Shown one piece after another: positions 1-15,324 of a DNA stretch of 19,197 bases. Origin of the DNA: a virus (taxonomy: Duplodnaviria; Heunggongvirae; Uroviricota; Caudoviricetes); the IMG/VR virus record IMGVR_UViG_2667527789_000020, positions 1 to 19,197 of that record; one strand, given 5' to 3'. Below the pieces are notes generated by a model that was given only the letters and a program-made list of their open reading frames with translations, made no database searches and was not told where the DNA came from. The translations under genes and the position numbers were made by a program. How positions within the stretch are numbered: the stretch's first letter is position 1; each line of letters starts with the position of its first letter.

Positions 1-1020
1 CTACTTGCTGACCACAAGTGGCAAATCCAGTGTCGGCGTGATTTTTGTTTTACGATCATAAATCAACACCTGATTTTCTGTTTTATGTCCACTGAAAATC
101 TGTTTGTCGCGACTGCTTCCTTCGTAATCTGATATTCCTTTGGCTTTTATGTCATGGAAATTGCACCCAAACGGGACGCCGGATTTTTTCTCGGCTGCGT
201 GTTTAGCCTGGTTCCACCAGTTGTTTAGCGTTTTAGCTATGACCTTCCCGCCCTTGGTTGTGTTGATCACATATTCACATGTGCCTGAAGATACATTTCT
301 GGCTAACTGGATCGCGGTTCGTAATCGTGGAGACCATTCCTTGATTTGTTTGGTGCCGGTCTTGTTTTGCTCAATGTAGATTCCTTTATCCATAATATCC
401 TGCCATTTCAGCTCGAGCACATCACCGAGTCTTGCCGCACAAAGATAGGATATCTCCATTGCAATGCGTAACTGTGGTATTGCTTCCGCATATATCGCCG
501 CATACTGTTCATCTGTGATGTAAACAGTGCGGGCTTTAAGCGTAAATTTCCTGACTCCTTTGCATGGGTTATTCTTCACATATCCACGCTCATATCCCCA
601 CCCGTATACACGACTGAGACTTGCCAGTTCATGGTTTGCCTGGGTCTTGCTCTCAATCCCCCGTTTATCCATGAAAATTCTTACCTGCTCAATTTTTACA
701 TTATCAGCCAGTACTTTTCCGAAGACTGCCAGTAACGCCCTCTGATGTTGCCGATAATCTTTTTGGGTTCTGGGGGCCAGTTCTGTAAATGCGGGGGAAT
801 CCATAAACATGTGCCATAATTTAGCGACGGTCATTATGTTGTGGCGTTTTGCTTTTTCCAGTTCATAATTCTGCCAGACTTTAGCTATGCTGGTTTCCCG
901 CACTCTTCCTAGCCCTATAGTTTTTGTGCTTCCTTCGGGTTTCCATACGTAACTGTAACCATTCGATCTAACACGTGGCGGTAGTGCATTATCTTTTTTG
1001 TTTTTTCTTGGTCTTCCCAT
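1..1020 (-). CDS. int: Tyrosine recombinase, lambda-Int family phage integrase (339 aa)
   Basis: Complete ORF. N-terminus MGRPRKNKKD...PPRVRSNGYSY...GLGRVRE parallels the lambda Int arm-binding domain. C-terminal half carries the catalytic Arg (AARLGD), an HDIK box and GHKTE...VLIYDR containing the nucleophilic Tyr. Sits at the prophage end followed by an overlapping xis-like gene. Confidence 0.93.
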   Translation of the reverse strand: MGRPRKNKKDNALPPRVRSNGYSYVWKPEGSTKTIGLGRVRETSIAKVWQNYELEKAKRHNIMTVAKLWHMFMDSPAFTELAPRTQKDYRQHQRALLAVFGKVLADNVKIEQVRIFMDKRGIESKTQANHELASLSRVYGWGYERGYVKNNPCKGVRKFTLKARTVYITDEQYAAIYAEAIPQLRIAMEISYLCAARLGDVLELKWQDIMDKGIYIEQNKTGTKQIKEWSPRLRTAIQLARNVSSGTCEYVINTTKGGKVIAKTLNNWWNQAKHAAEKKSGVPFGCNFHDIKAKGISDYEGSSRDKQIFSGHKTENQVLIYDRKTKITPTLDLPLVVSK

Positions 1021-1240
1021 TGTTCAGCGCCTCAAAATCGGGGTCAGCAGAAACCAGTTCAGATACTTTCGGTATCGCAGTCAGTCCGCGCGGGACATCA
1101 CTGCGAAGAACTATTGGTTCGTTTTTAGGACCGGGTACAAATGGGATACCGTGCAACCTTAACTGTTGTTGCTGTTTTGTATACCGTTCGTATCTCGTGA
1201 TCTCTTGAATTTCTGCTGGCGATAGAGTTAATTCGTACAT
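989..1240 (-). CDS. Putative excisionase / recombination directionality factor (83 aa)
   Basis: ATG at 1240; small basic protein with a K/R-rich C-terminus whose 3' end overlaps the int start by 32 bp, the classic xis-int arrangement. No recognisable similarity to lambda Xis, so the call rests on position only. Confidence 0.45.
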   Translation of the reverse strand: MYELTLSPAEIQEITRYERYTKQQQQLRLHGIPFVPGPKNEPIVLRSDVPRGLTAIPKVSELVSADPDFEALNNGKTKKKQKR

Positions 1241-1306
1241 GTGGTCACGTGCCTTACAGCATGACCGCCGCCACTATAGCTTGTGGGCGGCGATATGGGT
1301 TGAACA

Positions 1307-3745
1307 TTAAAAATCAGCCTGATTCGGGAACAGTTTTTGCCAGATAGCTGAAACGTATTTTGCCTGGTAACGCGCATCGTGCAGGGCATTATGGCGTTCA
1401 CCCTCAAATGTGATGACACTTCGAGCATCGAAATCCATCACCAGCCCCAGGGCAACAATCGTTCTTACATCACGATCATTGGTGTAACGCCACGGGCAGG
1501 GGATCTCCTGCCGTTCATATGAACGGCGTAAAATCACGTTGTCGAAGTTGGCTCCATTTCCCCAGACCTGAACAAAAAACTCACCGGAGTTTTCGTCTAT
1601 AAATTCCCGTAATTGTAAAAGCGCATCATCAAGCGGTATTCGATCAGCTAAAATGGCGGCACGGGCTTCGCCAGAGCGTTGAAGCCACCATTCGATGGTG
1701 CTTATGTCTACAGTGCCGCCACATGTACCCATATCAATTATTTTGCTGAATTCAGGCCCCTGCTCTCCGGTTTGTGGATCGAAAAATACAGCGCCTATTG
1801 AGGCTATTGGTGCGTCAGGATTTTTGCCCATTGTTTCAAGGTCAATCATCAGATGGTGCCACAACCTGCTGGTGGATGTGATTTCACGATGACCGTTCAC
1901 CTTAATTAAGGGATTTGCTGTCTCGCCTGTTTCATTATTGCCATTGGCATGTTGATCGCCTTCGGTGCACTCCTTGTTCGGGAGTCCGGCACTTTCCATT
2001 TCCTCCGGATCTTTTTCCCGGGCTTCATCCTGGCTTTCTTCGTTGAATGTCTCCTGGTAGGTTGCGTCCCCCATCACTGCGCCACAATCAGGGCAGTTAC
2101 CACCACCAGTCTGATTGCATGCGGTACAAACTTTTTCCTCTTCCTGTTGCACTACTGGTTCAGGTTGTTTCGTTTCTGGCTCGTTTTGTAACGCATTTGG
2201 GCTGTTTTGTTCCGCTTTCTGACCGTTCTGTTCCGTTTCTTGCTGGTTCTGGTTCACAGAATCGCAGGTTTCAATCCCCTTAACCCATTTCGAATCATTC
2301 GGGTCGCTAATCCCTTCAACAAACTCACCACGAGAAGCGGCAAGCAATTTGTCGGCATCTGGTCGACTGATGTCTGCTGCCTCCATAATTTTATTTACTT
2401 CTTCAGCAGTAACTTTTACCTGTGACTTGTCATCCAGCGGCTGCGGGTCCTGATGATGTTCAACTGTATCCGCTGCCATTGTTTCAGCCGTTGCCTGTTC
2501 ATCTGCCATTGCGCCAGATGGTTGCGGGTTTTCTTCATCATTTTTTTCTTCTTCTGTTTTGCACTCAGCAGCCAGTCCGCCGTTAATTTCTTCCAGGATA
2601 TCTTTTTCCGGTGTATGCCGGGCAGCCATGAGCGTTTCAGCTGTGGGATTCTCGTGATCAGTTTCTGTCAGGTTGGCATTGATATACCCCTGAAGGCGTC
2701 CCGGGTAGTGATAAAACTCAGGGTGGGCGCTCCGGATAAGTGCAAAAATAGCTGCGCGGGAATAGTCCAGGATACCAGGGGTTGCGCGAAGTGCTGCGGA
2801 CCATTCCCTGAACGGACTTTCTTTTTTCAGGACGATTTCTTTTGCGCGACGATAAACGCTCACGGGTATTTCATAAATATTAAAATCCATCGGAAGTGTG
2901 GCTGCTGCAGCCTCCACATCCAGAGTATCGAGGGTGTGTACTAAGTCAGGATTACGATCGGTTTTATTTCCGCCACCGGCATTTGCACCGGAAGCCGTGC
3001 GGGTGATGCGAGAAACACGATTTCCTTTCATCCACTCTTTTGTCAGCAGACCTCGATCGGTATAGTCAGCGTCCAGGTATGCTTCGAAAAAAGCAGTCAT
3101 TAACCCCAGACTGGAATTAACGGGATTAGGGAAAACTTTGTCTGTGTCGCGTACCAGTTTGTGAAGGTCGCGAATCTCCAGCGGGTCGAGCAGCTTTGTG
3201 TTGTGGGAAATAGCCAGGGTAGTAACAGCCGGCAGTTCTTCAGCTCGTGCGATATGTAATGCCTGAAGTTCTTCCCGTGAAACGTGCGTTACCGGTTTTT
3301 CGCTGCCATGTTGCGCAAGCCAGCGAATGGGCAGTTCCTGACCGGAAATCGGCAGGAGCATATTATCCTCAATCTCAGCCATGTCTTCGCCATTGACGTT
3401 GGTATTGTCAGTGCTGGCTGGTTTGTCCTGAACTGAGGGGGAAGGCGCTATAAATATCATTGTGATGCCATCTTCCCCGCCTTTTTCATAGCGGTTGCAG
3501 AATTCGGTATCAAACACGCCTTCCGGTGGAAGGTCATTCACAACGGGGAAATGGACGCGGACAGGTTTTTTGAAATCATCAGCGTCGTAGCCTGCCTCGT
3601 CCATTGCAACAACGCACCGTGAGATGGCAACAGATAATTTTTTTGCTGTAGTCCAGTAAAAACCCCCTTTAATCCCAAGGCGTTTTCTGACCTTGTCATT
3701 TTTTGCTTCGCAATATAGCGAAAATTCTTCTTTATCAGTGCTCAT
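1307..3745 (-). CDS. Large prophage exonuclease (812 aa): RecE-N-terminal-like region, CxxC-x8-CxxC zinc ribbon, C-terminal DEDDh (DnaQ-like) 3'-5' exonuclease domain
   Basis: ATG at 3745 preceded by GAGG with 7-nt spacer. C-terminal domain shows Exo I (MIDLETMG), Exo II (VWGNGANFDNVIL) and Exo III (HNALHDARYQAKY) motifs. Central Cys cluster CTACNQTGGGNCPDCG. N-terminal part (NTNVNGEDM.EIE.NMLLPISGQELPIRWLAQHGSEKPVTHVSR) resembles, from memory, the dispensable N-terminal region of Rac RecE. Confidence 0.8.
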   Translation of the reverse strand: MSTDKEEFSLYCEAKNDKVRKRLGIKGGFYWTTAKKLSVAISRCVVAMDEAGYDADDFKKPVRVHFPVVNDLPPEGVFDTEFCNRYEKGGEDGITMIFIAPSPSVQDKPASTDNTNVNGEDMAEIEDNMLLPISGQELPIRWLAQHGSEKPVTHVSREELQALHIARAEELPAVTTLAISHNTKLLDPLEIRDLHKLVRDTDKVFPNPVNSSLGLMTAFFEAYLDADYTDRGLLTKEWMKGNRVSRITRTASGANAGGGNKTDRNPDLVHTLDTLDVEAAAATLPMDFNIYEIPVSVYRRAKEIVLKKESPFREWSAALRATPGILDYSRAAIFALIRSAHPEFYHYPGRLQGYINANLTETDHENPTAETLMAARHTPEKDILEEINGGLAAECKTEEEKNDEENPQPSGAMADEQATAETMAADTVEHHQDPQPLDDKSQVKVTAEEVNKIMEAADISRPDADKLLAASRGEFVEGISDPNDSKWVKGIETCDSVNQNQQETEQNGQKAEQNSPNALQNEPETKQPEPVVQQEEEKVCTACNQTGGGNCPDCGAVMGDATYQETFNEESQDEAREKDPEEMESAGLPNKECTEGDQHANGNNETGETANPLIKVNGHREITSTSRLWHHLMIDLETMGKNPDAPIASIGAVFFDPQTGEQGPEFSKIIDMGTCGGTVDISTIEWWLQRSGEARAAILADRIPLDDALLQLREFIDENSGEFFVQVWGNGANFDNVILRRSYERQEIPCPWRYTNDRDVRTIVALGLVMDFDARSVITFEGERHNALHDARYQAKYVSAIWQKLFPNQADF

Positions 3746-3837
3746 GGATAAACCTCATAACTATTTTAAGGTTGTACGAACCCCTGCCATTGCTGGCATG
3801 CTTAATCAACGGGTATGGCGTTAATATGGCTGGTGGA

Positions 3838-4026
3838 TTATCCAGCCGGTATTTCGTTATTCAGGTACAGCGATACTTTTTTTAACGGGAGGCATTCGCC
3901 AGAAATTTTTTGCTCGTCTCTTGCACGGAGGCATGATTCTTTACTGGCATAAATTCCGGTAATCACATTCTGTGGCTCACCCGTTATAAGAAAAACAGTC
4001 ATTACCAGTGCAAATGCAGAAGTCAC
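3838..4026 (-). CDS. Small hypothetical protein with a hydrophobic N-terminal segment (YdfD-like position after dicB)
   Basis: GTG at 4026 overlaps the dicB-like stop (GTGA); alternative in-frame ATG at 4002. Hydrophobic stretch FALVMTVFLITG. Same strand and tightly coupled within the leftward operon. Identity unknown. Confidence 0.35.
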   Translation of the reverse strand: MTSAFALVMTVFLITGEPQNVITGIYASKESCLRARDEQKISGECLPLKKVSLYLNNEIPAG

Positions 4027-4211
4027 TGCTGCCCCCCGAAAATACCAAGTTTAAGAAGGGCAATTCTGGAGAGTATGGAATTATCATTGAGAAGATAAGG
4101 CTCATATTTTCTCATCTTAATGGCATCTTCAGTAAACTCCCGGTTACTGAGCAGAATACCAATATCAAAACACCCTTCAGACGTATTAACGTTTGGTAAT
4201 AACGTTTCCAT
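4023..4211 (-). CDS. dicB: Cell-division inhibitor DicB homolog (62 aa)
   Basis: METLLPNVNTSEGCFDIGILLSNREFTEDAI... closely matches the N-terminal half of E. coli Qin DicB as I recall it (MKTLLPNVNTSEGCFEIG...FTEDAI), and the length is identical. ATG at 4211 preceded by GAGGA with a 7-nt spacer. Confidence 0.75.
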   Translation of the reverse strand: METLLPNVNTSEGCFDIGILLSNREFTEDAIKMRKYEPYLLNDNSILSRIALLKLGIFGGQQ

Positions 4212-4221
4212 TATCGCGTCC

Positions 4222-4806
4222 TCAACAATGAATTTTTAGTAATTGCTCCACAGTCATATTTTTAATTGCGCTCCGGTTTACAAGAGTCCAGCCTTGTTTC
4301 TCCAGATAAAACTGGAAGGTATCCAGGGTGCAGACCATTGCACCATCAGGAACGGTTTCAGTGAATTTGATATTGCCGTGTTCGTCGAGACGGATAACCA
4401 GGGTACGTCCGTCCCCGTGAATCATTTTGTCGGGAGACGGGGCGTTATTCTGGCGCAGTTCTTTCTCCATGCGATCGAACTCAGCGATGTAGGCTTCTTT
4501 AAATGCAGCGGCTTTTTTGCCGGTGAAGCCCATCACCAGGAAAACGAAGCCGTTTTTGGTGATTTGGTACATAGGGAGTTTGCGCCCGGTTGAGTCGGTA
4601 TATTCACTGGGCGAAAAATTTCGCTCAGTGAATTCTGCTGAACAGTCTAGACGTGAAATTTTTGCCAGTACATCTTTGTGTGGTTTCCGGAAATACTCGG
4701 CAACAGCTAAAGAGGATGTAACAGCACGCCCATTGGCGATAGTAATTTCAGGGTGAGAAAGGGCAGGGATAGTAGCCATGATGGCAGCCTCCATGATGAA
4801 TTTCAT
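4222..4806 (-). CDS. Rha-family phage regulatory protein (antirepressor-like)
   Basis: Core ITIANGRAVTSSLAVAEYFRKPHKDVLAKISRL...MYQITKNGFVFLVMGFTGKKAAAFKEAYIAEF is typical of the Phage_pRha domain. The six-frame ORF extends to 5073 but the first ~90 codons are compositionally non-protein-like and contain a terminator-like hairpin. Likely start is ATG at 4806 (SD-like GGTGGTGAG upstream) or ATG at 4779 (GGAGG, 8-nt spacer). Confidence 0.7.
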   Translation of the reverse strand: MKFIMEAAIMATIPALSHPEITIANGRAVTSSLAVAEYFRKPHKDVLAKISRLDCSAEFTERNFSPSEYTDSTGRKLPMYQITKNGFVFLVMGFTGKKAAAFKEAYIAEFDRMEKELRQNNAPSPDKMIHGDGRTLVIRLDEHGNIKFTETVPDGAMVCTLDTFQFYLEKQGWTLVNRSAIKNMTVEQLLKIHC

Positions 4807-4943
4807 TAACTCACCACCGGAGGTAGCAATCTCATGGGTGGTGAGACGCACAGGGTTGCTACAACCGGTCATCATGGAACCCGGCCAGCCTTGCGGCTGC
4901 CCTGCACGCCCCACCATAATCTGAATGTGGCTGTGCATTACGC

Positions 4944-4968
4944 ATAAAAAAACCGCCTGAGCGCGGTT
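4944..4968 (-). terminator. Candidate Rho-independent terminator on the minus strand
   Basis: Minus-strand RNA would form AACCGC / GCGGTT stem (6 bp, 6-nt loop) followed by a 7-U run (plus-strand A7 at 4946-4952). Lies between the DicF-like element and the Rha start. Confidence 0.4.
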
Positions 4969-5264
4969 ATGCGCCATGATGAACATCGGGGTAGCAATCC
5001 CGGCACCCGCTTTATGAGGTGCAGGTGCACTATAATTCCACCCGTTCTGGTTTTCAATAGCTACATTCAACATTTTCTCTTACCTTTCATCACCGAAGTG
5101 AACTTTGTCGATGCAGTGCCTGGTGCCTCCAGGTGACGTTAACCAGTTAACAATTAACGCCGGAATACAGAAGTATGCCCGTTACGCCCCGTAAAAGACC
5201 ACTTTACGGTTTTAACTGTTCCGCGTGCGCTTAGCCGCATTCACCGCATCACAAAATTCACTTT

Positions 5265-5322
5265 AAAAAGGGCGGACATCAGAAAGCTAATAAACTGATG
5301 CCGCCAAAGGTACCACTGCCAT
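5265..5322 (-). ncRNA. dicF: DicF-like small RNA candidate with intrinsic terminator
   Basis: Minus-strand transcript ...ACCUUUGGCGGCAUCAG-UUUAUUAGCUUU-CUGAUGUCCGCC-CUUUUU: an 11-bp GC-rich stem (one bulge), 12-nt loop and U5 tail. The UUUGGCGG.AUCAGUUU and CCGCCCUUUUU segments resemble E. coli DicF as I recall it. Lies in the same operon and upstream of the dicB homolog, as in Qin. The 5' end is not defined. Confidence 0.45.
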
Positions 5323-5590
5323 TGAAACATGGAGATGTTGTGGCGGGGTTGTCACTCAGGCATATGGTCAACCTGACAACCCGGTGTCCTCAATGAGGGG
5401 AAAAGAAATAAAAACCCCCAGCCATATTTACCGCCGCGCCATTTCGCGGATTGCCACAACCGGAAGCACACGGTCGAAGAAATCTAACGACAAGCCTTCT
5501 AAGGGAAAGAGCTTCGCCGTGCGCTTTCGTGTTATACCCTGACTTTTCAGGGTAAATTAACCAGTGGCAACCTGTTTTTACTGGTGCTAA

Positions 5591-5743
5591 TCAGTTAGTG
5601 TTTCTGGCTAACCAGCGACGCGCGCCAGCTTCGGTTTTAAACTTTTTACTTTTGGTATACGTCATCGCGGTAAACGTGCCGTCCTGGTTAGGGAACACAC
5701 CACATACCAGAGATTCGTTGTTGCCAAGATTGAGCGTATCCAT
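5591..5743 (-). CDS. Small protein (50 aa), YdfA/YdaF-like (DUF1391-like) first gene of the leftward operon
   Basis: ATG at 5743 preceded by GAGG with a 5-nt spacer (TGAGGTCAACATG). The six-frame ORF extends to 5797, but that upstream start has no RBS. Product MDTLNLGNNESLVCGVFPNQDGTFTAMTYTKSKKFKTEAGARRWLARNTN. Family assignment is from position and vague recall only. Confidence 0.5.
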   Translation of the reverse strand: MDTLNLGNNESLVCGVFPNQDGTFTAMTYTKSKKFKTEAGARRWLARNTN

Positions 5744-5923
5744 GTTGACCTCATTTCCCCTTAACGCCGGGGTAGCGGAACAAAAAACCTGCTGCATAGT
5801 TAAACGTAATCCCCGCCGTCATGTTCATACGCCTCAGGCTGGCTACTTAACCCCTGACCACTGCCGGGTAACTCGAAGTATTGCCCTGCGTTCTGTGGGG
5901 CGGGGTGGGTTTATGGATACAAT

Positions 5924-6006
5924 TTACAAATTAAAATTTAACTGGTCAACATGTTTATTATTAAATTTGTAATTGCGAGCTGTTGCATTAGTCCCAAAAT
6001 GGGACT
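5924..6006. promoter_or_regulatory. Candidate operator/promoter region (OL-like, divergent leftward promoter and higBA promoter)
   Basis: AT-rich. Inverted repeat TTACAAATT (5924-5932) / AATTTGTAA (5964-5972), and a second perfect palindrome AGTCCCA-aaa-TGGGACT (5990-6006) immediately upstream of higB. The TTACAAAT half-site recurs in the repressor/cro intergenic region. Confidence 0.4.
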
Positions 6007-6017
6007 ACTATACAGTT

Positions 6018-6320
6018 ATGAAGATTATCTCAGTTAAAACACTCAGGGATTTTTGGGCGGAGAATCCTGATGCAGAACAACCGCTAAGGGCATGGGTGGA
6101 TGAGGCGGCAAAAGCTGACTGGAAAAGCCCAGCAGACATTAAGGCACAATACCGAACGGCCAGTATATTGAAAAACCGGCGCGTGGTATTCAACATAAAA
6201 GGTAATCATTACCGTTTAATTGTTGCAATTGCGTATCAGCGAGGATGGGTATTTGTTAAATTCATCGGAAACCACAAGGAATACGATGCTATTGATGCTG
6301 ATACCATCGAACTGGAGTAA
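6018..6320 (+). CDS. higB: Type II toxin HigB (RelE/ParE superfamily mRNA interferase), 100 aa
   Basis: ...VVFNIKGNHYRLIVAIAYQRGWVFVKFIGNHKEYD parallels E. coli HigB (VFNVGGNELRVVAMV...HKEYD). Directly followed by an HTH antitoxin gene 2 bp downstream. The six-frame ORF starts at a TTG at 5973; ATG 6018 is preferred. Confidence 0.85.
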   Translation: MKIISVKTLRDFWAENPDAEQPLRAWVDEAAKADWKSPADIKAQYRTASILKNRRVVFNIKGNHYRLIVAIAYQRGWVFVKFIGNHKEYDAIDADTIELE

Positions 6321-6322
6321 GC

Positions 6323-6682
6323 ATGAACATCAAACCTATTCGTACAGAGCAAGATTATGAAGCCGCGTTGCGTGCTGTTGAACCCATGTTCGACAATGAG
6401 CCCGAAATTGACACGCCTGAGGGGGATTTTTTTGAGGTGATGTGTTTGCTAATAGAGGAATATGAAAAAAAACATTATCCCATTGAGCCACCATCCCCAA
6501 TTGAAGCTATAAGATTTCGCATGGAACAGCAGGGGCTGACTGTGAAAGATTTGGAACCCGCAATTGGGAAAAAAAATCGGGTTTATGAGGTGTTGAATGG
6601 TACCAGAAGCCTTACGTTACCAATGATTCGCCGTCTTCATAATCAATTTGGTATCCCCCTGGAAAGCCTGGTTGGATTATAA
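6323..6682 (+). CDS. higA: Antitoxin HigA (XRE-family HTH), 119 aa
   Basis: Acidic N-terminal part and C-terminal HTH (LTVKDLEPAIGKKNRVYEVLNGTRSLTLPMIRRLHNQFGIPLESLV). Toxin-first gene order with a 2-bp spacing is typical of higBA. Confidence 0.85.
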   Translation: MNIKPIRTEQDYEAALRAVEPMFDNEPEIDTPEGDFFEVMCLLIEEYEKKHYPIEPPSPIEAIRFRMEQQGLTVKDLEPAIGKKNRVYEVLNGTRSLTLPMIRRLHNQFGIPLESLVGL

Positions 6683-6697
6683 AATCTGCTAGTCATT

Positions 6698-6746
6698 TGC
6701 CTGATGCTCGTTCCAGAAAAGGAATGCATCAGGCAGTTTTGTTTTT
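6698..6746 (+). terminator. Rho-independent terminator after higA (convergent with the repressor 3' end)
   Basis: TGCCTGATGC (6698-6707) pairs with GCATCAGGCA (6726-6735), with an inner TTCC/GGAA stem, followed by GTTTTGTTTTT. Overlaps the stop codon of the minus-strand repressor gene. Confidence 0.6.
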
Positions 6747-7121
6747 CTGCCGCAGTAACTCTTCAAGTTTCCGTTTATAGAAATCGCGTTTTTGCTCCAT
6801 ATCACGAATGATCTGCTCTGCGTCGCTTTGAGGTAACTCATCTAAAAGCGATATGATTTTTCGTTGTTGTTCTGTAAGTTGCGGTTGGTTGTCATTACTG
6901 GATACAGCCATTTTATCGCCGAGAGTTTCTTCTTCCATAAAGAACCAATGGACGGGATGTTGTGAGAGCTCTGCTAATTTTTCCAGTTTATCCATTCTTG
7001 GCATCACGCCTTTCAACCAACCTTGCACGGATTGGGGTTTTACACCAAGACGTCTTCCCAGCTCTGACTGGTTTATATTCAATTCCTGCAACACCTGCTG
7101 AAGGCGTTTTACAAAGATCAT
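6729..7121 (-). CDS. DicA-like prophage repressor (N-terminal XRE HTH, C-terminal coiled-coil), 130 aa
   Basis: HTH LQQVLQELNINQSELGRRLGVKPQSVQGWLKG, then a charged helical tail (EQQRKIISLLDELPQSDAEQIIRDMEQKRDFYKRKLEELLRQ) with the same architecture as DicA. No S24 peptidase domain. ATG at 7121 preferred (GAGGGG, 5-nt spacer) over the in-frame GTG at 7127. Divergent from the cro-like gene. Confidence 0.8.
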   Translation of the reverse strand: MIFVKRLQQVLQELNINQSELGRRLGVKPQSVQGWLKGVMPRMDKLEKLAELSQHPVHWFFMEEETLGDKMAVSSNDNQPQLTEQQRKIISLLDELPQSDAEQIIRDMEQKRDFYKRKLEELLRQKNKTA

Positions 7122-7176
7122 CACCACCCCTCGTAAACTAGTTCCGCGATCCTACAGAAAAAATTGATAAGTGGCA

Positions 7177-7214
7177 TTACAAATAGAAGTTGAAATTTAA
7201 ATTTAAATTTGTAA
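7177..7214. promoter_or_regulatory. Candidate operator (OR-like) in the repressor/cro divergent promoter region
   Basis: Inverted repeat TTACAAAT (7177-7184) / ATTTGTAA (7207-7214) flanking three tandem AAATTT units. Lies in the 126-bp intergenic space between the repressor start and the ydaS-like start. Confidence 0.4.
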
Positions 7215-7247
7215 TCATCGGTGTCATCGTAAAGTTCGGAGGGAAAC

Positions 7248-7508
7248 ATGCAAAAAAGTACTCAAGTGAAAATCCTGTCAATAATGAGCCAATCAGAATT
7301 AGGGCGTCGTCTTGGTAAAACACCGCAAACCATAAGTGGGTGGTTTAAAAAACGAGTGCCAGCGGAGGAGGTTATACCAGCATGTGAGGCGCTTGACTGG
7401 GGAGTAACTCCGCATGAATTGCGCCCTGATAAATACCCTAATCCAACCGATGGTTTACCTGTTGAGTATCAGGCTAACGCACAAGCAGCGGCGGGAGTTG
7501 ATTCATGA
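7248..7508 (+). CDS. ydaS: Cro-like HTH protein, YdaS family (86 aa)
   Basis: SQSELGRRLGKTPQTISGWFKKRVPAEEVIPACEALDWGVTPHELRPDKYP matches the YdaS/Cro-like pattern (LG.TPQ..S.W...VPAE.V...E......HELRPD.YP). ATG preceded by GGAGGG. Divergent from the repressor. Confidence 0.7.
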   Translation: MQKSTQVKILSIMSQSELGRRLGKTPQTISGWFKKRVPAEEVIPACEALDWGVTPHELRPDKYPNPTDGLPVEYQANAQAAAGVDS

Positions 7509-7942
7509 AAATCAAGCATGAGCACATCCGCATGGCGATGAATGCGTGGCTGCTTTATCCGAGGGTAGGGCGCAAAAAAATCGCTGATGATATAGCGACA
7601 GCATATTTTGAGCTTGAAATGACTTATCCACCAATGCATGACACCTCTACGACAGAGGGTATTGGATTGAATATACAAAATATTTTTCGCTGGCTTGAAA
7701 AGGATACGCCTGATGCTGTTGAAAAAATTCAGGCACTAATTCCGGCTATCCTGACTGTTCTTCCGCGTGAACTGCGTTATCACCTCAGTATTTTTGACAC
7801 TGTTGAGCGCCGTGCATTACTGGCGGCGCAGGAAGCGTTGAGCACGGCAATTGATGCACATGATGATGCTGTCCAGGCCGTTTACCGGAAAGCGTATTTC
7901 AGCGACGGCGGGTCATCCGGCGAGTCTGTTGTGGTGCATTGA
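7505..7942 (+). CDS. ydaT: YdaT-family protein (CII-like regulator / putative toxin YdaT), 145 aa
   Basis: Begins MKIKHEHI; C-terminal LIPAILTVLPRELRYHLSIFDTVERRALLAAQEALSTAIDAHDDAVQAVYRKAYFSDGGSSGESVVVH matches Rac YdaT as I recall it. ATGA overlap with the ydaS-like stop. Confidence 0.7.
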   Translation: MKIKHEHIRMAMNAWLLYPRVGRKKIADDIATAYFELEMTYPPMHDTSTTEGIGLNIQNIFRWLEKDTPDAVEKIQALIPAILTVLPRELRYHLSIFDTVERRALLAAQEALSTAIDAHDDAVQAVYRKAYFSDGGSSGESVVVH

Positions 7943-8028
7943 TATTTATGCCAGCCCCCTGCTGATTCTGTTGATTGGGGAATCACAGAATATCACCAGA
8001 GGATGGTTCGTCACAAGATGAGGCAATT

Positions 8029-9039
8029 ATGGCCGCATTACCATACATGCAACTGTACATAGCTGATTACCTAGCTGACACCATGCATTTGTCCGCAGAG
8101 GAGCACGGTGCGTATTTGTTGCTGATGTTCAATTACTGGCAAACAGGGAAACCAATACCTAAAAACAGGCTGGCAAAAATTTCCCGTCTGACTAACGAGC
8201 GATGGGCTGATGTGGAACCATCCTTGCGGGAGTTTTTTTGCGATAACGGCGATGAATGGGTGCATCTTCGGATTGAGGAAGATCTGGCATCAGTCAGGGA
8301 AAAATTAACCAAAAAATCAGCCGCCGGAAAAGCATCTGTTCAGGCCAGAAGAAGCAGAAAGGAAGCATATGTTCAAACAAAACAAGAGAGAGATTTAACA
8401 GGCGTTCAAACAAATGTTGGTGTTGTGTTTGAACATGACGCAAACACAAAAGCAACTAATAAAGATACAGATCTAAAAGAATTAAACCCCACACATAACG
8501 TGCGTGAACGCGAGAGTATTCCGACCAGTGAGTCGCATGGTGCGCCGTTGCAGACAGCCGAACCTGAATACCTGGACGGCCTGAGCGAACCGATCGGGAA
8601 ATTTTCGATGACCACTGTCTGGCAGCCGTCGCCGGATTTTCGACAACGGGCAGCAGTGTGGGGTATGGCTCTGCCTGAGCCGGAATTTACACCTGCTGAG
8701 CTTGCCGCATTCCGGGATTACTGGATGGCGGAGGGGAAGGTTTTCACACAGGTTCAGTGGGAGCAGAAATTTGCCCGCCACGTGCAGCACGTCAGGGCAC
8801 AGGTAAAACCAGTCAGCAAGGGGGGAAGCCATGCAGCATCAGGTGGCACGGCATCACGGGCAATTCAGGAAATCCGGGCAGCACGCGAACAGTGGGAACG
8901 AGACAACGGATTTATCAGCAACGGAAACGGCCTGGAAGCTGTGGGAGCTTATGGGGGAGGTGTATTCGAACCGCTGGACTCAGAAGAACGGGGCCGCACC
9001 TTCGAAGCTCTGGATTGCCCAGATTGGTGCGATGACTGA
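8029..9039 (+). CDS. Replication initiation protein, YdaU-like (DUF1376 N-terminal domain, DnaT-like C-terminal region)
   Basis: ATG at 8029 preceded by GAGG with a 5-nt spacer; the six-frame ORF starts at a TTG at 7975. N-terminus YMQLYIADYLADTMHLSAEEHGAYLLLMFNYWQTG is the DUF1376 signature. C-terminal half (SMTTVWQPSPDFRQRAAVWG...FTPAELAAFRDYW) resembles DnaT-like domains. Confidence 0.7.
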   Translation: MAALPYMQLYIADYLADTMHLSAEEHGAYLLLMFNYWQTGKPIPKNRLAKISRLTNERWADVEPSLREFFCDNGDEWVHLRIEEDLASVREKLTKKSAAGKASVQARRSRKEAYVQTKQERDLTGVQTNVGVVFEHDANTKATNKDTDLKELNPTHNVRERESIPTSESHGAPLQTAEPEYLDGLSEPIGKFSMTTVWQPSPDFRQRAAVWGMALPEPEFTPAELAAFRDYWMAEGKVFTQVQWEQKFARHVQHVRAQVKPVSKGGSHAASGGTASRAIQEIRAAREQWERDNGFISNGNGLEAVGAYGGGVFEPLDSEERGRTFEALDCPDWCDD

Positions 9040-9493
9040 ACAGCAAATCCGGCAGGTCTGTCGTCAGTGCATGGACCGCTGCCGGGCGGGTGAAACGTGG
9101 CCCCCGGACCTGGCTGAGTTTGTTGCGCTGATTTCGGAGAGTGGGGCAAATCCATTTGGTCTTACGGTGGATGCCGTGATGGAAGAGTACCGGCGCTGGC
9201 GCAATGAATCCTGGCGATACGACGGGAGTGATAAATACCCGTGGCCACAGCCTGTGCTGTACCACATCTGCCTCGAAATGCGTACCAGAGGGATTGAGCG
9301 CCAGATGACGCAGGGTGAGTTAAAACGACTTGCGGAACGGCAACTGACGAAATGGGCAAAGCATGTTGGTAACGGGATGAGTGTTCCGCCAGTGCGACGA
9401 CAACTGGAAGGGGCGAAACACCCGAAAGGGCCAACGCCAATTGAATGGCTGAAACAGGAATACGAACGCCGGAAGGCAGCTGGTTTTATTTGA
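8831..9493 (+). CDS. Lambda P-like replication protein (helicase loader family)
   Basis: PPDLAEFVALISESGANPFGLTVDAVMEEYRRWRNE...DKYPWPQPVLYHICLEMRTRG...QGELKRLAERQL parallels lambda P (PSPGQFVAWCREE...GLPNVSELVDMVYEYCRKRG...ESYPWKSNAHYWL...TDAELRRKAADEL). ATG at 8831 has a strong SD (AAGGGGGGAAG) but overlaps the upstream gene by 209 bp in another frame. Alternative starts are 8951 and 9032. Confidence 0.6.
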   Translation: MQHQVARHHGQFRKSGQHANSGNETTDLSATETAWKLWELMGEVYSNRWTQKNGAAPSKLWIAQIGAMTEQQIRQVCRQCMDRCRAGETWPPDLAEFVALISESGANPFGLTVDAVMEEYRRWRNESWRYDGSDKYPWPQPVLYHICLEMRTRGIERQMTQGELKRLAERQLTKWAKHVGNGMSVPPVRRQLEGAKHPKGPTPIEWLKQEYERRKAAGFI

Positions 9494-9526
9494 ATCTGAG
9501 AAGCGATTTTGTAGGAGGAAATTTTA

Positions 9527-10288
9527 ATGGAAACCGTTTTTGACGCACTGAAAGCAATGGGAAAAGCCAGCTCTGTTGGACTGGCTGAGCGGCTTGATAT
9601 CAGTCGTGAAGAGGTTCTCAACGAACTGTGGGAACTCAAAAGAAATGGCGTTGTTGATAAAGCGGGTCACATCTGGTTTCTGGCTGGCGAAGGTGAATCC
9701 GGGGTAACCGAAGAGCAGCCAGAACAGTCTGAAGTACCGGATGTGCTGACCGGGGAGGTCGAACAAAAAGTTACCGCAGACATGATGATTGAGTTTATCG
9801 GTCAGGAGGGGGCTAAAACGTGTGAGGAACTGGCGGATAAGTTCGGTGTTAGCATTCGCAAGGTTGCTTCCACGTTGGCGGTGGTAACCGCAACGGGACG
9901 CCTGGCACGCGTAAATCAGAACGGTAAATTTCGTTACTGCATGCCGGGCGATAATTTACCAGCAGAGCCGAAAGCCGTGCCGGTAACGGAAAATGATGGT
10001 AAGGCCTTTCCTCAGCCAGCAGGTGTTGCGTTACCAGTACAGGAATCTGCAACACAGGAAGATATTAAAACAGAAACAGTGGCGGACATTGTGCAGTCGT
10101 TGCCATCGTTTACCGAAACGCAAGCAGATGAGCTGATTTTTCTGTCCCTGTGCAGGGCAAACCTGGCGCTGCGCAGGGCGAAAAGTGATGTTCAGAAGTG
10201 GGAGCGAGTCTGTGCCGCGCTGCGGGAACTGAACAAACACAGGGATATTCTCCGGGATATTACCGCCACCAGAGAGCTGCTGCGGTGA
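9527..10288 (+). CDS. Hypothetical protein with two tandem winged-helix-like modules (253 aa)
   Basis: ATG preceded by AGGAGG. Two internally similar segments ([30 protein letters not shown] and [32 protein letters not shown]) look like wHTH units. Function unknown. Confidence 0.65.
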
Positions 10289-10320
10289 GTGGCTGGAAGA
10301 AGTGGCGCTGGGCGGAAATT

Positions 10321-10602
10321 ATGATACTCCGGCAGTGTGCGGGAACGATGACAGTCGAAAGCATCGGCAGTCTGATTGGCCGTAGTGGGGCTGCCGTCAG
10401 GACGAAAGCGCGGGAACTGGGTATCTGCATGATGTTACGGGGTGATTATCACCAGTCAGCCAAATGTTCACAGCGTGATATTGAGCTGGCGCGGCAACTG
10501 CATCAGCGTGGCGTACCCCGACGGGAAATTGCCGAAAAGTTTGGGATGAAGTTGGGCGCAGTGAATAACTACGTTTATTTCGACAGGAGGGTTCAGGCGT
10601 GA
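10321..10602 (+). CDS. Small HTH-domain protein
   Basis: Two HTH-like segments (TVESIGSLIGRSGAAVRTKARELGI and VPRREIAEKFGMKLGAVNNYV). Start is uncertain: GTG 10285 overlapping the upstream stop, ATG 10321 or ATG 10342, all with weak RBS. Confidence 0.5.
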   Translation: MILRQCAGTMTVESIGSLIGRSGAAVRTKARELGICMMLRGDYHQSAKCSQRDIELARQLHQRGVPRREIAEKFGMKLGAVNNYVYFDRRVQA

Positions 10603-10904
10603 GGGTGAGAATTTATATCGCCGGTCCGATGACGGGATATGAAAATTTCAACCGTGAGGCGTTTCACAGGGCGGAAGAAGCACTGAAACGGGAAGGGCAT
10701 ACCGTTTTAAACCCGGCAGTACTTCCGGACGGACTGACACAGCCACACTACATGGATATTTGCATGGCGATGATACGCTGCGTGGATGCGATTTACATGC
10801 TGAAAGGCTGGCAGCGGTCGGCAGGCGCTAAGGCAGAACTGGCACTGGCGGAGAAACTGGGACATGCGGTTATTTTCCAGGAGGCAACCAGTGAGAAAAA
10901 TTAA
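10599..10904 (+). CDS. DUF4406-family protein (nucleoside 2-deoxyribosyltransferase-like fold), 101 aa
   Basis: GTG start overlapping the upstream stop (GTGA), preceded by AGGAGG. N-terminal MRVRIYIAGPMTGYENFNREAF is the characteristic DUF4406 signature. Confidence 0.7.
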   Translation: MRVRIYIAGPMTGYENFNREAFHRAEEALKREGHTVLNPAVLPDGLTQPHYMDICMAMIRCVDAIYMLKGWQRSAGAKAELALAEKLGHAVIFQEATSEKN

Positions 10905-11541
10905 TTATCAGACGCTACGTGAGATAGCAAAACTGGCAACCCAGGGCGAATGGGTCGCATTCATTTCGCCGGGCACTGATACATATGCGGTGCATACGCC
11001 GGGGGATGAACGTTGCGGAGACATTATCAAATGGCCTGGCTTTGATGACCAGAAAAATGCAGAGAACAACGCAGAATTTATTGCAGCTTTCAACCCTGAA
11101 GTAGTACAGGCACTGCTGGATGAACGGGAAGCCCAAAGCAAACGTATTGCAGAGCTGGAAGCTAATCTTGTGGCGCTGGCGGCGGAGAATGCACTTGCTC
11201 GTAAAGCAGTTCAGGCATTCTGCGATGTTGTTGGCGACAACACCGAGGTTATCTGCGAGGAGGTTGGGAGAGATGGCGTTCTGGTTATTTTGGAGGCCAT
11301 GAAGGCAACAGGAAATATGCCAGCCACCGATGCTTTCCTGTCTGAAGTGCGGGCGCTGGGGGTGGATGCTGCTATAGAAGCTGCAAAAAATCTGGTGGCC
11401 CAAGAATATGAGTATAAGGATTTCAAAGCGGCGCAGAGTGATTGCTGTATGCACCCTGGTTCAGACCTGATAGGGAAGGTTGAAATGACTGAGTGGTTAG
11501 TTGACTTTGCTGCCCAGCTTCGCAAAGGAGTTCAGTCATGA
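10891..11541 (+). CDS. ead/Ea22-like family protein
   Basis: GTG start (AGGAGG, 6-nt spacer) giving VRKINYQTLREIAKLATQGEW..., the Ea22-like N-terminal motif, followed by a coiled-coil segment (AQSKRIAELEANLVALAAENALARKAV). The six-frame ORF begins upstream at 10864 inside the DUF4406 gene. Confidence 0.6.
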   Translation: MRKINYQTLREIAKLATQGEWVAFISPGTDTYAVHTPGDERCGDIIKWPGFDDQKNAENNAEFIAAFNPEVVQALLDEREAQSKRIAELEANLVALAAENALARKAVQAFCDVVGDNTEVICEEVGRDGVLVILEAMKATGNMPATDAFLSEVRALGVDAAIEAAKNLVAQEYEYKDFKAAQSDCCMHPGSDLIGKVEMTEWLVDFAAQLRKGVQS

Positions 11542-11867
11542 GAGCTTCAATTAGTTATGTCGACGATTGCCACCTAAGCGTGCGTGTTGATGAAATTGTG
11601 TCATCCGTGCCAACTTTTCCGACAAAAAATGCAGCCGTTAATGCAGGCGCGCCATTCGGATGGAGGACGGCAGTTCGTATTGAGCGTCGATTCGAAAACG
11701 TTTGGGTGGTAGGTAAGAAATGCTTCCAAAGCGATCGCTCTGCGGGGCTTAATTTTGAAGCATATCGATTCCCGTTCCTCCGATGGGAGAAAGAGGGCGG
11801 GATTACAAAATGCCCGATTCTTTCCGTGCGCAGATTCAAGCAGGAGGCAACCAGTGAGCAAGATTGA
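11538..11867 (+). CDS. Hypothetical protein (109 aa)
   Basis: ATGA overlap with the upstream stop. Its C-terminus (...KQEATSEQD) is encoded by the same 18-bp junction sequence that forms the C-terminus of the DUF4406 gene (...FQEATSEKN), which suggests a genuine gene at a module joint. Confidence 0.4.
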   Translation: MRASISYVDDCHLSVRVDEIVSSVPTFPTKNAAVNAGAPFGWRTAVRIERRFENVWVVGKKCFQSDRSAGLNFEAYRFPFLRWEKEGGITKCPILSVRRFKQEATSEQD

Positions 11868-12198
11868 CTATCAGGTATTGCGTGAGGCAGCACAAAACTA
11901 TCGGTCGATGCTGGCGTGGTATCAGGAGAAACCAGACAGTCCAAACGCTGAGCAGGATTGTGATGCAGCTTTGGCTGCGTTTAAGCGTGAAATCCGTCAT
12001 CGTGAAGTGGGTATTATCGCTGATTTGCTGGATGAACTGGAGGAAGCAAAACAGCGTATCGACGAGCAGGAGTCCCGCATAGTGAAGTTACCAGAACCAT
12101 TCAAGCTGGCTAAATCATCAAGTGGATTAACGTACTACTACGCTGATGAGGTCAATGCCGCACTGACTGCTGCTGGTATTCGCATAGAAGGAGAGTGA
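11854..12198 (+). CDS. Ea22-like N-terminal-motif protein (114 aa)
   Basis: GTG start within the repeated junction. VSKIDYQVLREAAQNY parallels VRKINYQTLREIAKLA of the upstream Ea22-like gene, followed by a coiled-coil segment (LDELEEAKQRIDEQESRIVKL). Confidence 0.5.
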   Translation: MSKIDYQVLREAAQNYRSMLAWYQEKPDSPNAEQDCDAALAAFKREIRHREVGIIADLLDELEEAKQRIDEQESRIVKLPEPFKLAKSSSGLTYYYADEVNAALTAAGIRIEGE

Positions 12199-12199
12199 G

Positions 12200-12553
12200 A
12201 TGACCACTATTACCAAAGAGCGACTGCAATGGCTGGCTAACATTTCTGGCCGCGATGACATTGACGATATAGACGGCGGTGAAATTCGTGAGCTGGCGCT
12301 TATCGCGCTGGCATCGCTGGAAGCGAAGCCTGTAGCTTCATGTATTATTGAAGATGGGGGCATGTGTGTTGACGGGTTCGGTGAGTATGTTGGTCACTCG
12401 CTGCCTGATGGAACGCACCAGCTTTACGCCGCCCCGCCAGTGCCTAGTAAGTTGCCGCGTGAATACAGAAACGGTTGGCCTCTTGCATATAGTGATTATG
12501 CTGAAGGCTGGAACGACTGCCGCGAAGCCATGCTTCAGGGAGATAAATCATGA
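12200..12553 (+). CDS. Hypothetical protein (117 aa)
   Basis: ATG preceded by GGAGAG, 1 bp after the upstream stop; the downstream gene starts with an ATGA overlap. No recognisable domain. Confidence 0.55.
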   Translation: MTTITKERLQWLANISGRDDIDDIDGGEIRELALIALASLEAKPVASCIIEDGGMCVDGFGEYVGHSLPDGTHQLYAAPPVPSKLPREYRNGWPLAYSDYAEGWNDCREAMLQGDKS

Positions 12554-12912
12554 TTAATCGTATCAAGCTGGAGCACATCCTCGAATATGCCAGGCAGCAG
12601 AAGCATACTGGTCAGCATTGTAAAATTCCACCAGGGGATATGGTTGAAATCATGGAGATTGCCATGCGCAAGGCTGGCAATTCTCCGGTAACTCCGGATG
12701 GTTGGATAAGCTGTAGTGAGCGAATGCCGAATACCAAAACAGCCGTTCTTGTTGCCGTGGAGTTTGACAGGAAAGGTGACTGGCGAATGAAATGGGCTAC
12801 TTACATCCCGGGGCATCATGACGCTAATGATGGGTGGATAATTCCTGGTGCGTCGTGGAAACCGTCACACTGGATGCCGCTACCAGAACCGCCGAAGGAG
12901 GTGCGCCAATGA
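12550..12912 (+). CDS. DUF551-domain protein (120 aa)
   Basis: C-terminal DGWISCSERMPNT...VLVAV...W......W...SHWMPLPEPP is the characteristic DUF551 signature of lambdoid nin-region proteins. Confidence 0.65.
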   Translation: MINRIKLEHILEYARQQKHTGQHCKIPPGDMVEIMEIAMRKAGNSPVTPDGWISCSERMPNTKTAVLVAVEFDRKGDWRMKWATYIPGHHDANDGWIIPGASWKPSHWMPLPEPPKEVRQ

Positions 12913-13138
12913 GCTGGCCTGAGGCCTTCTCAAATGTTGGTATTGCAATGGCGCTGGTGGTGTATTCGATTTGCCGCTGGGGATAAAAACGGTTTGCGGG
13001 GAAAGAAGAGTTAAGTAGAATTGCTGCGGGTGCCTGAGGCTGTCTGCCTCAGGCATGAACACCAAAAGGCAGATAGAGAAAGCCCCAGTTAACATTACGC
13101 GTCCTGTAAGACGCTCAACATTAATCTGAGGCATATGG

Positions 13139-14263
13139 ATGCGGATGAAAGAATTAAATAAATTCAGAGTGATAGACCTCTTTTGTGGGGCAGGTGGATT
13201 ATCTTATGGTTTTCTTCATGGAGAGATGTCTGACTACTTTGAAAGTATCCTTGCTATTGATAATAATGCTGCAGCTATAAATACCTACAATGCCAATTTT
13301 GGTTTGCATGGAGTTCAGGCAAATATTGAGGAGTGGGCATCCAGCAATACTGTTCCTGAGGCTGATGTGGTCATAGGTGGCCCCCCGTGTCAGGGATTCA
13401 GTTTATTGAATAAGAATCGTTATGGTGATCACCGAAGAGCATTGTGGGAGCCTTATATGGATGTCATTGAGCGTTCAAGGGCTTGCATGTTCGTCATGGA
13501 AAATGTCCCCGGATTGCTGATAAGCGATGAGTTTGCGGACATTACGTTTAGAGCGAAATCCATGGGCTTTATTCTGCTTAATCCAATGGTGTTGAATACT
13601 GCTGACTATGGAGTACCTCAGACAAGAAAACGAACGATAGCAATCGGTATCAAACGAGAACTCTTCGATGAGCATAGTATTCCGGCGTTCCCGCCAGCAC
13701 CAACGCATCGTTCCCCTGATAAGGATGTCGCTTTGCCTGAATGGGTCTGTACGCGTGATGCAATTGGTGACTTACCTGCTCCTGTTGGAACTGATATTCG
13801 TAATGAACTTCCTCCGCTGAACTTACATTTTGGGCGTAATCCCACACCTGTTTCTCTGGAGCGATATAAAGCGGTTCCACCAGGAGGTAACCGTTTCGAT
13901 TTACAGAAAAAAAGACCTGATATAACCCCGGCGTGCTGGCTAAAAAAGAAATCTGGAGGGACCGATTTGTTTGGACGTCTGTGGTGGGACAGACCTTCAG
14001 TAACGATTCGTACTGAGTTTTTCAAACCGGAGAAAGGGCGATATTTACATCCGGAAGAGGATCGGCCAATAACTCATCGTGAGGCAGCGAGATTAATGTC
14101 TTTTCCTGATAATTTCATTTTTACCGGTTCAAAAACTGAGATTGCAAAGCAGATCGGGAATGCTGTTCCACCGCTATTTGCGGCAAAAATCGCACAATAT
14201 GTGTATGGAGTTTTGCAGGGACGGTATAAGAATAACATCAGTAAGAATAGTCAAGCAGCCTGA
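13139..14263 (+). CDS. DNA (cytosine-5)-methyltransferase, modification subunit of a Type II R-M system (374 aa)
   Basis: Motif I DLFCGAGG (FxGxGG), motif IV GGPPCQGFS (catalytic PC), motif VI ENV, motif X-like QIGNAVPPLFAAKIA. ATG preceded by GAGG with a 7-nt spacer. Visibly more AT-rich than the flanking phage genes. Confidence 0.9.
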   Translation: MRMKELNKFRVIDLFCGAGGLSYGFLHGEMSDYFESILAIDNNAAAINTYNANFGLHGVQANIEEWASSNTVPEADVVIGGPPCQGFSLLNKNRYGDHRRALWEPYMDVIERSRACMFVMENVPGLLISDEFADITFRAKSMGFILLNPMVLNTADYGVPQTRKRTIAIGIKRELFDEHSIPAFPPAPTHRSPDKDVALPEWVCTRDAIGDLPAPVGTDIRNELPPLNLHFGRNPTPVSLERYKAVPPGGNRFDLQKKRPDITPACWLKKKSGGTDLFGRLWWDRPSVTIRTEFFKPEKGRYLHPEEDRPITHREAARLMSFPDNFIFTGSKTEIAKQIGNAVPPLFAAKIAQYVYGVLQGRYKNNISKNSQAA

Positions 14264-14276
14264 AGGAAATCCAGAA

Positions 14277-15154: not shown

Positions 15155-15226
15155 CATCTCTATGTAAATAGAGTCTGTCATATTTTAACTGTGATGGCAC
15201 GTCATTGACTTCAGTACATTTTTACT

Positions 15227-15252
15227 AACCTGCTTCGCGGGTTTTGTTTTTT
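15227..15252 (+). terminator. Rho-independent terminator downstream of the R-M cassette
   Basis: AACCTGC-ttc-GCGGGTT stem (7 bp with one G-U pair) followed by TTGTTTTTT. A weaker hairpin (GACA.CTCTA / TAGAG..TGTC) lies directly after the endonuclease stop at 15153-15179. Confidence 0.55.
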
Positions 15253-15324
15253 CCTGGCATTCTGGTTTACAATCCACACGCCAGCCTGAACAACTGGCAC
15301 CTGCTGCGCCAGCAGAGACAACCG

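Follow-up and report, generated by a model that had tools for sequence, protein, structure and literature searches.

Back-to-back control elements of a prophage and of a HigBA toxin-antitoxin cassette predicted upstream of higB in a lambdoid prophage of Escherichia coli

In the higBA (ygjNM) operon of Escherichia coli K-12, the transcription start has been mapped, inverted repeats have been drawn as putative binding sites, a putative Shine-Dalgarno sequence has been marked and autoregulation by HigA has been reported (PMC2814082). In the Qin prophage, DicA represses dicBp through operators that are common to the dicA-dicC region (PMC10448788). In prophage CP-933P, the slot between the repressor gene and the leftward early promoter (PL) carries paaA2-parE2 as cargo, and paaR2 is leaderless, as confirmed by 5' RACE, one of the few leaderless genes known in E. 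coli (PMC8630535). Here we compare these systems with the approximately 120 bp upstream of a higB toxin gene in a 19,197-nucleotide stretch of viral DNA (IMG/VR record IMGVR_UViG_2667527789_000020, positions 1 to 19,197; hereafter, the window), which covers the early region of an E. coli prophage, Qin/Rac-like and lambdoid, that is inserted beside yccA.

Our analysis indicates, with good confidence, that this interval consists of two independent control modules placed back to back, PL with operators of the prophage repressor and the higBA promoter with a HigA operator, such that the repeats of the interval are split between two different regulators. The left half (5912-5973) would be a PL-like promoter of a Qin/Rac-type lambdoid prophage, similar to dicBp and bracketed by inverted boxes, where a repressor bound to the promoter-proximal box would keep RNA polymerase off the -10 element. 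The right half (5983-6017) would be the higBA promoter, with a perfect palindrome as its 17-bp spacer; HigA or the HigBA complex, bound between -35 and -10, would repress its own operon, in classical type II autoregulation, and a leaderless higB together with the conserved GGAG of higA would hold toxin synthesis below antitoxin synthesis.

The first-pass annotation of this DNA recorded the palindrome as AGTCCCA-AAA-TGGGACT at 5990-6006, directly before higB. The palindrome is indeed perfect, and its full arms are 8 bp long, TAGTCCCA (5989-5996) and TGGGACTA (6000-6007), separated by the 3-nt spacer AAA; 11 nt lie between its end and the higB ATG (6018). We predict that 5989-6007, with the conserved core 5990-6006, is the HigA operator, as suggested by the presence of the palindrome, its uniqueness in the window and its conservation at a fixed offset from higB. 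No second copy was found anywhere in the window, including the repressor-cro region, even with up to three mismatches. Taken alone, the palindrome is statistically unremarkable: a match with up to three mismatches occurred in 77 of 200 shuffled sequences, and the window carries approximately 12 distinct perfect palindromes with arms of at least 7 bp. The significance of the palindrome thus derives from its conservation and not from its statistics within the window. A role as terminator was considered and rejected, given that a scan detected no terminator-like site in 5700-7350, and the palindrome is not followed by a T-run on either strand.

To assess conservation, we collected 80 loci encoding relatives of HigA (53-91% identity) from contigs representing one genome per species; higB could be placed in 70 of these, and the 120 bp before higB were searched for the palindrome core, with the other 381,206 bp of the loci serving as background. 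The strict core, TCCCA-N3-TGGGA, was present in 23 of the 70 higB upstream regions and never in the background, and a relaxed core in 29 of the 70, compared with 12 background matches. The modal offset of the core from the ATG, -26, is the same as in the window. Altogether, 33 distinct sequences, belonging to Enterobacterales, to Betaproteobacteria or to unrelated viral contigs, carry (A)GTCCCA-N3-TGGGAC(T) at the same position before higB. The motif is found in Kosakonia, Enterobacter, Klebsiella, Leclercia, Trabulsiella, Lelliottia, Providencia, Citrobacter, Phytobacter and a Serratia plasmid, and, in the Betaproteobacteria, in Polynucleobacter, Paraburkholderia and Uliginosibacterium. The flanks of the motif are otherwise unalignable between genera, with no similarity left of the -35 element. 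A blind scan of viral contigs for AGTCCCANNNTGGGACTA yielded 80 loci, 24 of which encode a higB homolog in the correct orientation 10-13 nt downstream, and 11 of these 24 lack the repressor of this prophage. The remaining 56 matches belong to unrelated sequence families, except for one contig (L138) that is cut off just past a higB-like start; these matches were rejected as additional HigA targets because they come from unrelated families and the number of specified bases fits chance expectation.

Within 3 kb of the HigA-relative loci, there are no homologs of the repressor, cro, ydfA, ydaT or rha of this prophage, and the ATTTGTAAT boxes of the prophage, described below, are not found in the HigA-relative loci of other genera. 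Because the motif recurs at a fixed offset from higB in the absence of the genes of this prophage, the palindrome is, judging by its distribution, a part of the higBA cassette and not of the phage. Both the genome survey and the blind viral scan show that the site is inherited together with the toxin-antitoxin genes irrespective of the genomic context. The suggestion of the first-pass annotation that 5990-6006 serves in HigA autoregulation is supported by this higBA-linked conservation, as well as by the predicted location of the site within the core promoter.

This distribution bears on two alternative interpretations. If all repeats of the interval, including the AGTCCCA palindrome, were operators of the prophage repressor or Cro, higBA would be under phage immunity control and not self-regulated. 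The palindrome is only 16 bp away from the nearest repressor box, and among complete E. coli genomes, higBA and this immunity type are invariably found together, with 148 genomes carrying the repressor region and 148 the whole segment; against this, the palindrome has no second copy in the repressor-cro region or elsewhere in the window, it goes along with higBA also where this repressor is missing, in genomes as well as in viral contigs, and the boxes are absent from those repressor-less loci. We therefore give this interpretation hardly any weight. The other alternative is that the palindromes are functionless chance features of an AT-rich intergenic region. A single perfect palindrome with arms of 7-8 bp is not rare in 19 kb, and the short repeat TTACAAATT of the prophage boxes is not enriched window-wide when one mismatch is allowed (5 found, 7.1 expected). 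Such a coincidence is nevertheless next to negligible in our assessment, considering the conservation of the palindrome across bacterial orders at a fixed offset, the recovery of higB by a blind motif scan, the concentration of an extended 13-bp form of the box at two promoters (see below) and the conservation of both boxes and palindrome on either side of a variable junction.

Alignment of the 33 distinct sequences on the palindrome reveals a common layout, TTGnnn / nAGTCCCAnnnTGGGAC / TAnnnT / 5-9 nt / start codon. In the window, the predicted higB -35 element TTGCAT (5983-5988, + strand) is followed by a 17-bp spacer (5989-6005), the predicted -10 element TACTAT (6006-6011, + strand), the hexanucleotide ACAGTT and the ATG at 6018. 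The palindrome fills the spacer and runs two bases into the -10 element, so that the inverted repeat overlaps the predicted core promoter elements. At the -35 position, TTG is conserved in 20 and TT in 27 of the 33 sequences (TTGAAT in variants of the prophage), and TAnnnT is present in 31 of the 33. From the -10 element to the start codon, the distance is 6 nt in the window, as in 21 of the 33 relatives; in the others, it is 7 nt (7 sequences), 8 nt (3), 9 nt (1) or 5 nt (1). No Shine-Dalgarno sequence precedes higB in the window, and an SD-like tetramer was found in only 2 of the 33 relatives. The -10 element thus ends 6 nt before the ATG, which puts the A of the start codon at the canonical +1 position; given also the lack of a Shine-Dalgarno sequence, the higB mRNA is probably leaderless, with the ATG as the predicted transcription start. 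In contrast, higA is preceded by a Shine-Dalgarno sequence, GGAG (6314-6317, + strand), located within the 3' end of higB and with an equivalent in 17 of 21 relatives. Weak translation of the leaderless toxin message versus Shine-Dalgarno-driven translation of the antitoxin could keep the antitoxin in excess in this toxin-first operon. If correct, a leaderless toxin cistron would explain how an excess of antitoxin is achieved in an operon of this order. As the published K-12 map marks a putative Shine-Dalgarno sequence, leaderless higB would be a feature of this subfamily.

A different role of the palindrome, also raised in the first-pass annotation as a structure occluding the ribosome-binding site of higB, is that of an RNA hairpin in the higB 5' leader, which would control translation by occluding the start region. 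A transcript initiated upstream of 5978 could indeed form the 8-bp hairpin extended by an outer helix, AGCUGU/ACAGUU, reaching the base before the AUG (-19.6 kcal/mol; z = -2.5), and TATTAT at 5956-5961 could serve as the -10 element of the promoter producing it. However, the interval from the hairpin to the AUG lacks a Shine-Dalgarno sequence that could be occluded, both in the window and in 31 of the 33 relatives; TTGnnn and TAnnnT, conserved at promoter spacing, place the palindrome upstream of the predicted start; the outer AGCUGU arm falls in a hypervariable junction; and the scanner called no rightward promoter upstream. Furthermore, it is the sequence and not the pairing that is maintained: all 15 variant sites in the core are changed in one arm only, with no compensatory change, and 7 of the changes would break an RNA pair. 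We consider the hairpin highly improbable, and the occlusion proposed earlier finds no support here.

Returning to the palindrome as HigA operator, the same architecture recurs with different specificity in other HigBA systems. The relatives from Alphaproteobacteria have GAGACCA-N3-TGGTCTC at the same place, and in these, the recognition helix of HigA reads NRVADVLNRKR, as opposed to NRVYEILNGTR; the operator type seems to change together with the recognition helix, which we regard as supporting evidence only. The K-12 higBA is similar in that the PF09907 toxin comes first, followed by an antitoxin with a C-terminal Xre-type helix-turn-helix (HTH) domain; the identity to the proteins encoded in the window is 33% for HigA and 28% for HigB; the solved structures closest to our HigA, 5IFG and 5YCL, are both HigA. 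The K-12 upstream region contains CCGTTGCCA-atc-TGGCAACGG, with the CCA-N3-TGG core, and a second, imperfect copy, and, as in the window, inverted repeats with a 3-nt spacer overlap the core promoter. All three operator types, those of the window, of the Alphaproteobacteria and of K-12, share this CCA-N3-TGG core, with half-site centers 10 bp apart, a distance that fits an HTH dimer. The specificity flanks differ, GTTGCCA in K-12 and AGTCCCA in the window, and K-12 has two sites, the second one between a TATCAT -10-like hexamer and the ATG, whereas the single site of the window is within the spacer, and a leader would have no room. Many enterobacterial chromosomal relatives (L002-L015, e.g., L005 and L006) also have a distal palindrome of the HigA type, approximately 30 bp upstream of the first (about -56 from higB), unlike the prophage copy and the betaproteobacterial copies, which have only one. 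From these comparisons, we derive (A)GTCCCA-N3-TGGGAC(T) as the candidate operator consensus of a HigBA subfamily that is widespread, along with the layout of its promoter.

The second set of repeats in the interval, noted previously as a shared TTACAAATT / AATTTGTAA repeat without an assigned function, is present at 5924-5932 (+) and 5964-5972 (-). Another exact copy of TTACAAATT is located at 7206-7214 (-) and a copy with one mismatch at 7177-7185 (+), bringing the number of exact copies in the window to 3, compared with 0.30 expected. The element extends beyond 9 bp: with up to two mismatches, the 13-mer TTAAATTTGTAAT is matched four times, compared with 0.74 expected, and none of 200 shuffled sequences reached four. 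These matches form two inverted pairs that are confined to two control regions, 5923-5935 (-) and 5961-5973 (+) at PL, and 7176-7188 (-) and 7203-7215 (+) in the repressor-cro intergenic region. At PL, box L1 (5923-5935, -), TTTAATTTGTAAA, contains the first TTACAAATT copy and overlaps the -10 element and the spacer of PL; a 14-19 nt stretch of the L1 region matches the box proximal to the rightward early promoter (PR) in the right operator region (OR), and its core TACAAATT is conserved among variants of the immunity type. Box L2 (5961-5973, +), TTAAATTTGTAAT, is an exact 13-mer copy of 7203-7215, and is located 11 nt upstream of the PL -35 element and 9 nt upstream of the higB -35 element. 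On the other side, box R1 (7176-7188, -), TTCTATTTGTAAT, lies in the repressor-cro intergenic region, and box R2 (7203-7215, +), TTAAATTTGTAAT, overlaps the -10 element of the predicted rightward cro promoter PR, identified by a consensus scan (TTGAAA at 7190-7195, a 17-bp spacer and AATCAT at 7213-7218). Each of the two predicted promoters, therefore, has one ATTTGTAA box over the -10 element, and a partner box that is just upstream of or abuts the -35 element.

The TTACAAATT / ATTTGTAA(T) boxes are most likely operators of the DicA-like prophage repressor, the product of the gene at 6729-7121, which is the presumed binder of the ATTTGTAAT boxes, and the boxes are probably operators of Cro as well; HigA is the presumed binder of the palindrome at 5989-6007. 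This assignment extends to the shared repeat that had been left without one, which is most likely a set of prophage immunity operators and not a HigA site. As in the lambdoid left and right operator regions (OL and OR), the same motif is found at both early promoters flanking the repressor gene, and it covers predicted promoter elements, with L1 on the -10 of PL and R2 on the -10 of PR. The motif is, moreover, specific to the immunity type, as indicated by the homology boundary at PL (see below) and by E. coli ST95-32, a prophage-bearing strain of a different immunity type, whose PL and OR each carry an inverted pair with another sequence, AACAGTTTTTAATTG. The repressor-cro region additionally contains a perfect 18-bp palindrome, AAATTTAAATTTAAATTT, at 7193-7210, between the two boxes, which together with its flanks makes a near-palindrome of approximately 25 bp centered around 7202; this near-palindrome may be the true binding unit of the region.

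The comparison with Qin supports the same logic. In both prophages, the gene order includes a cro-like gene, a short non-cleavable repressor, a PL-like promoter and ydfA, and boxes are common to the PL-like and PR-like regions, as in lambda OL and OR. Unlike in Qin, PL and the repressor gene are separated by a higBA cassette. The two prophages also differ in repressor and operator sequence, and hence, the window represents an immunity type different from that of Qin. For Qin and lambda, three operators are described, and in lambda these are three tandem dyads of approximately 17 bp, whereas in the window, only two boxes per region are evident, each with weak internal symmetry.

The presence of a leftward early promoter in the same approximately 120 bp, as surmised in the first-pass annotation, is supported by promoter prediction and by a homology boundary. 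A consensus scan predicts a PL with the -35 element TTGACC (5944-5949, - strand), kept in all variants of the immunity type, a 17-bp spacer and the -10 element TAAATT (5921-5926, - strand; TAGATT in the variants), with the transcription start near 5914. Downstream of it, the leader of the PL-like early operon (5798-5911, - strand), upstream of the ydfA-like gene, is common to many immunity types: of 5426 complete E. coli genomes, more than 3000 contain 5808-5911 at 90-98% identity. This homology stops at approximately 5911/5912, a few bases from the predicted start; therefore, the immunity-specific DNA appears to begin at the predicted PL start, around 5914. Two other immunity types that we aligned are identical to the window up to GGGGCGGGGTGGG and diverge directly after it, and in the other immunity types, an AT-rich hexamer resembling a -10 element is found equally far from the boundary. 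A search of phage records for near-identical matches to 5560-6720 matched the ydfA side alone, to approximately 5911, and thus yielded no phage sharing this immunity region. The K-12 Qin dicA-ydfA region was rejected as an anchor for the PL start, given that only about 45 nt before ydfA align. The leader RNA is not predicted to fold into a structure more stable than those of shuffled sequences (z = +1.35), and accordingly, no structured leader is claimed.

Between the two predicted modules lies a junction of phage control DNA and the higBA cassette (5974-5982), for which no function is inferred. The stretch 5973-5984 is the most variable among variants of the prophage region, whereas the same variants have kept the boxes, the -35 hexamers and the core of the palindrome. 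Among complete E. coli genomes, 148 contain the repressor-plus-OR region and equally 148 contain the entire 5800-7260 segment; in this collection, higBA thus seems to be a constant component of the immunity type. In the window, the position that corresponds to the distal HigA site of the relatives is occupied by repressor box L2. A rather unlikely extension of our scheme is that the entire HigBA subfamily is natively leaderless for the toxin, as a throttle, and that here, in addition, higBA is wired into the immunity switch via box L2. If that were the case, occupancy by the prophage repressor, that is, lysogeny as opposed to induction or superinfection, could modulate higBA expression, and a toxin-antitoxin pair wired in this manner would serve prophage maintenance or abortive infection.

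Several observations weigh against the arrangement of two independent modules, or at least against individual parts of it. The boxes are not clearly dyad-symmetric when taken singly, and the spacing of the inverted pairs, center to center, is 40 bp for L1/L2 and 29 bp for R1/R2, a difference of approximately one helical turn. Little covariation is available, as the variants of the immunity type are at least 93% identical: a search of viral contigs for distant relatives of the repressor produced 22 matches, all at this level, whereas the relatives in phage records show at most 40% identity. On the higBA side, TTGCAT fits the -35 consensus in only 3 of 6 positions, the consensus scanner made no call for the higB promoter, and the rightward TATTAT mentioned above is a possible alternative -10 element, in which case the palindrome would be transcribed as part of a 5' leader. 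The link between the HigA recognition helix and the operator type is confounded by phylogeny. Finally, the window contains one HigA site and many enterobacterial relatives have two, approximately 30 bp apart, and for this reason, repression here may differ from that in the relatives.

The elements of the two modules are of well-known kinds, and a family-wide leaderless toxin cistron, if borne out, would be the only mildly unexpected point. With higBA, the locus also adds a toxin-antitoxin pair to the cargo known from the slot that separates PL from the repressor gene in lambdoid prophages. Accessory genes in this slot are shared with paaR2-paaA2-parE2 of CP-933P, relBE of ST95-32 and rexAB of lambda; however, the cargo in those prophages is co-oriented and co-transcribed with the repressor gene, whereas in the window, higBA and the repressor gene are on opposite strands and converge, and higBA has a predicted promoter and operator of its own. 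Other immunity types with the same PL leader carry different cargo between PL and the repressor gene: in E. coli ST95-32 (L225, 1616-2687), the slot is occupied by relBE, co-oriented with the repressor gene, and in the O157:H7 H2495 prophage (L226), it contains no cargo.

The proteins of this HigBA subfamily lie close to the core of an anti-phage system, PD-lambda-2, in which PD-lambda-2B has a peptidase domain at its C terminus and a third gene is needed for defense (Vassallo et al. 2022; PMC9519451). HigB matches the PADLOC model PD-Lambda-2_A (E = 1.1e-40), and the match of HigA to PD-Lambda-2_B (E = 1.7e-42) covers only positions 1-119 of 402. Membership in PD-lambda-2 was nevertheless rejected, given that HigA, with 119 amino acids, lacks the peptidase domain and higA is not followed by a third gene.

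The higB gene (6018-6320, + strand) encodes a PF09907 protein with a match over the full length of the profile (E = 4.8e-33). The start of higA (6323-6682, + strand) is 2 nt past the higB stop; in the encoded protein, the dimerization and toxin-binding part is N-terminal and the HTH_3 domain C-terminal (residues 63-115). The repressor gene (6729-7121, - strand) is convergent with higA, 46 bp beyond its end, and encodes a short, DicA/Gifsy-like HTH_3 protein of 130 amino acids without a peptidase domain, which shows 32-40% identity to the repressors of Gifsy-1/2 and SPN3UB and a weak match to the NCBIfam DicA model (49.9 bits, under the cut-off of 101). An NCBIfam search assigned no named family to HigB, HigA or Cro. 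Further to the right are a YdaS/Cro-like gene (7248-7508, + strand) and ydaT (7505-7942, + strand). On the leftward side, the DUF1391/YdfA-like gene (5591-5797, with the annotated start at 5743; - strand) is followed by a Rha/Ash-type gene annotated as a 283-amino-acid open reading frame (4222-5073, - strand). The 5' part of this reading frame contains gathering-level Rfam matches to the C4 antisense RNA (4834-4921, - strand; 77.9 bits) and to isrK (4946-5022, - strand; 64.7 bits), and because these matches lie inside it, the annotated start may be too far upstream. Together, the two matches suggest that the PL operon includes a P1/Gifsy-like antirepressor module controlled by antisense RNA.

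Downstream of higA, TGCCTGATGC (6698-6707) pairs with GCATCAGGCA (6726-6735) in a long hairpin followed by a T-rich run (6736-6749), which the terminator scanner missed because the loop exceeds 8 nt. This element (6698-6749) looks like a higBA terminator, and it overlaps the stop codon of the convergent repressor gene.

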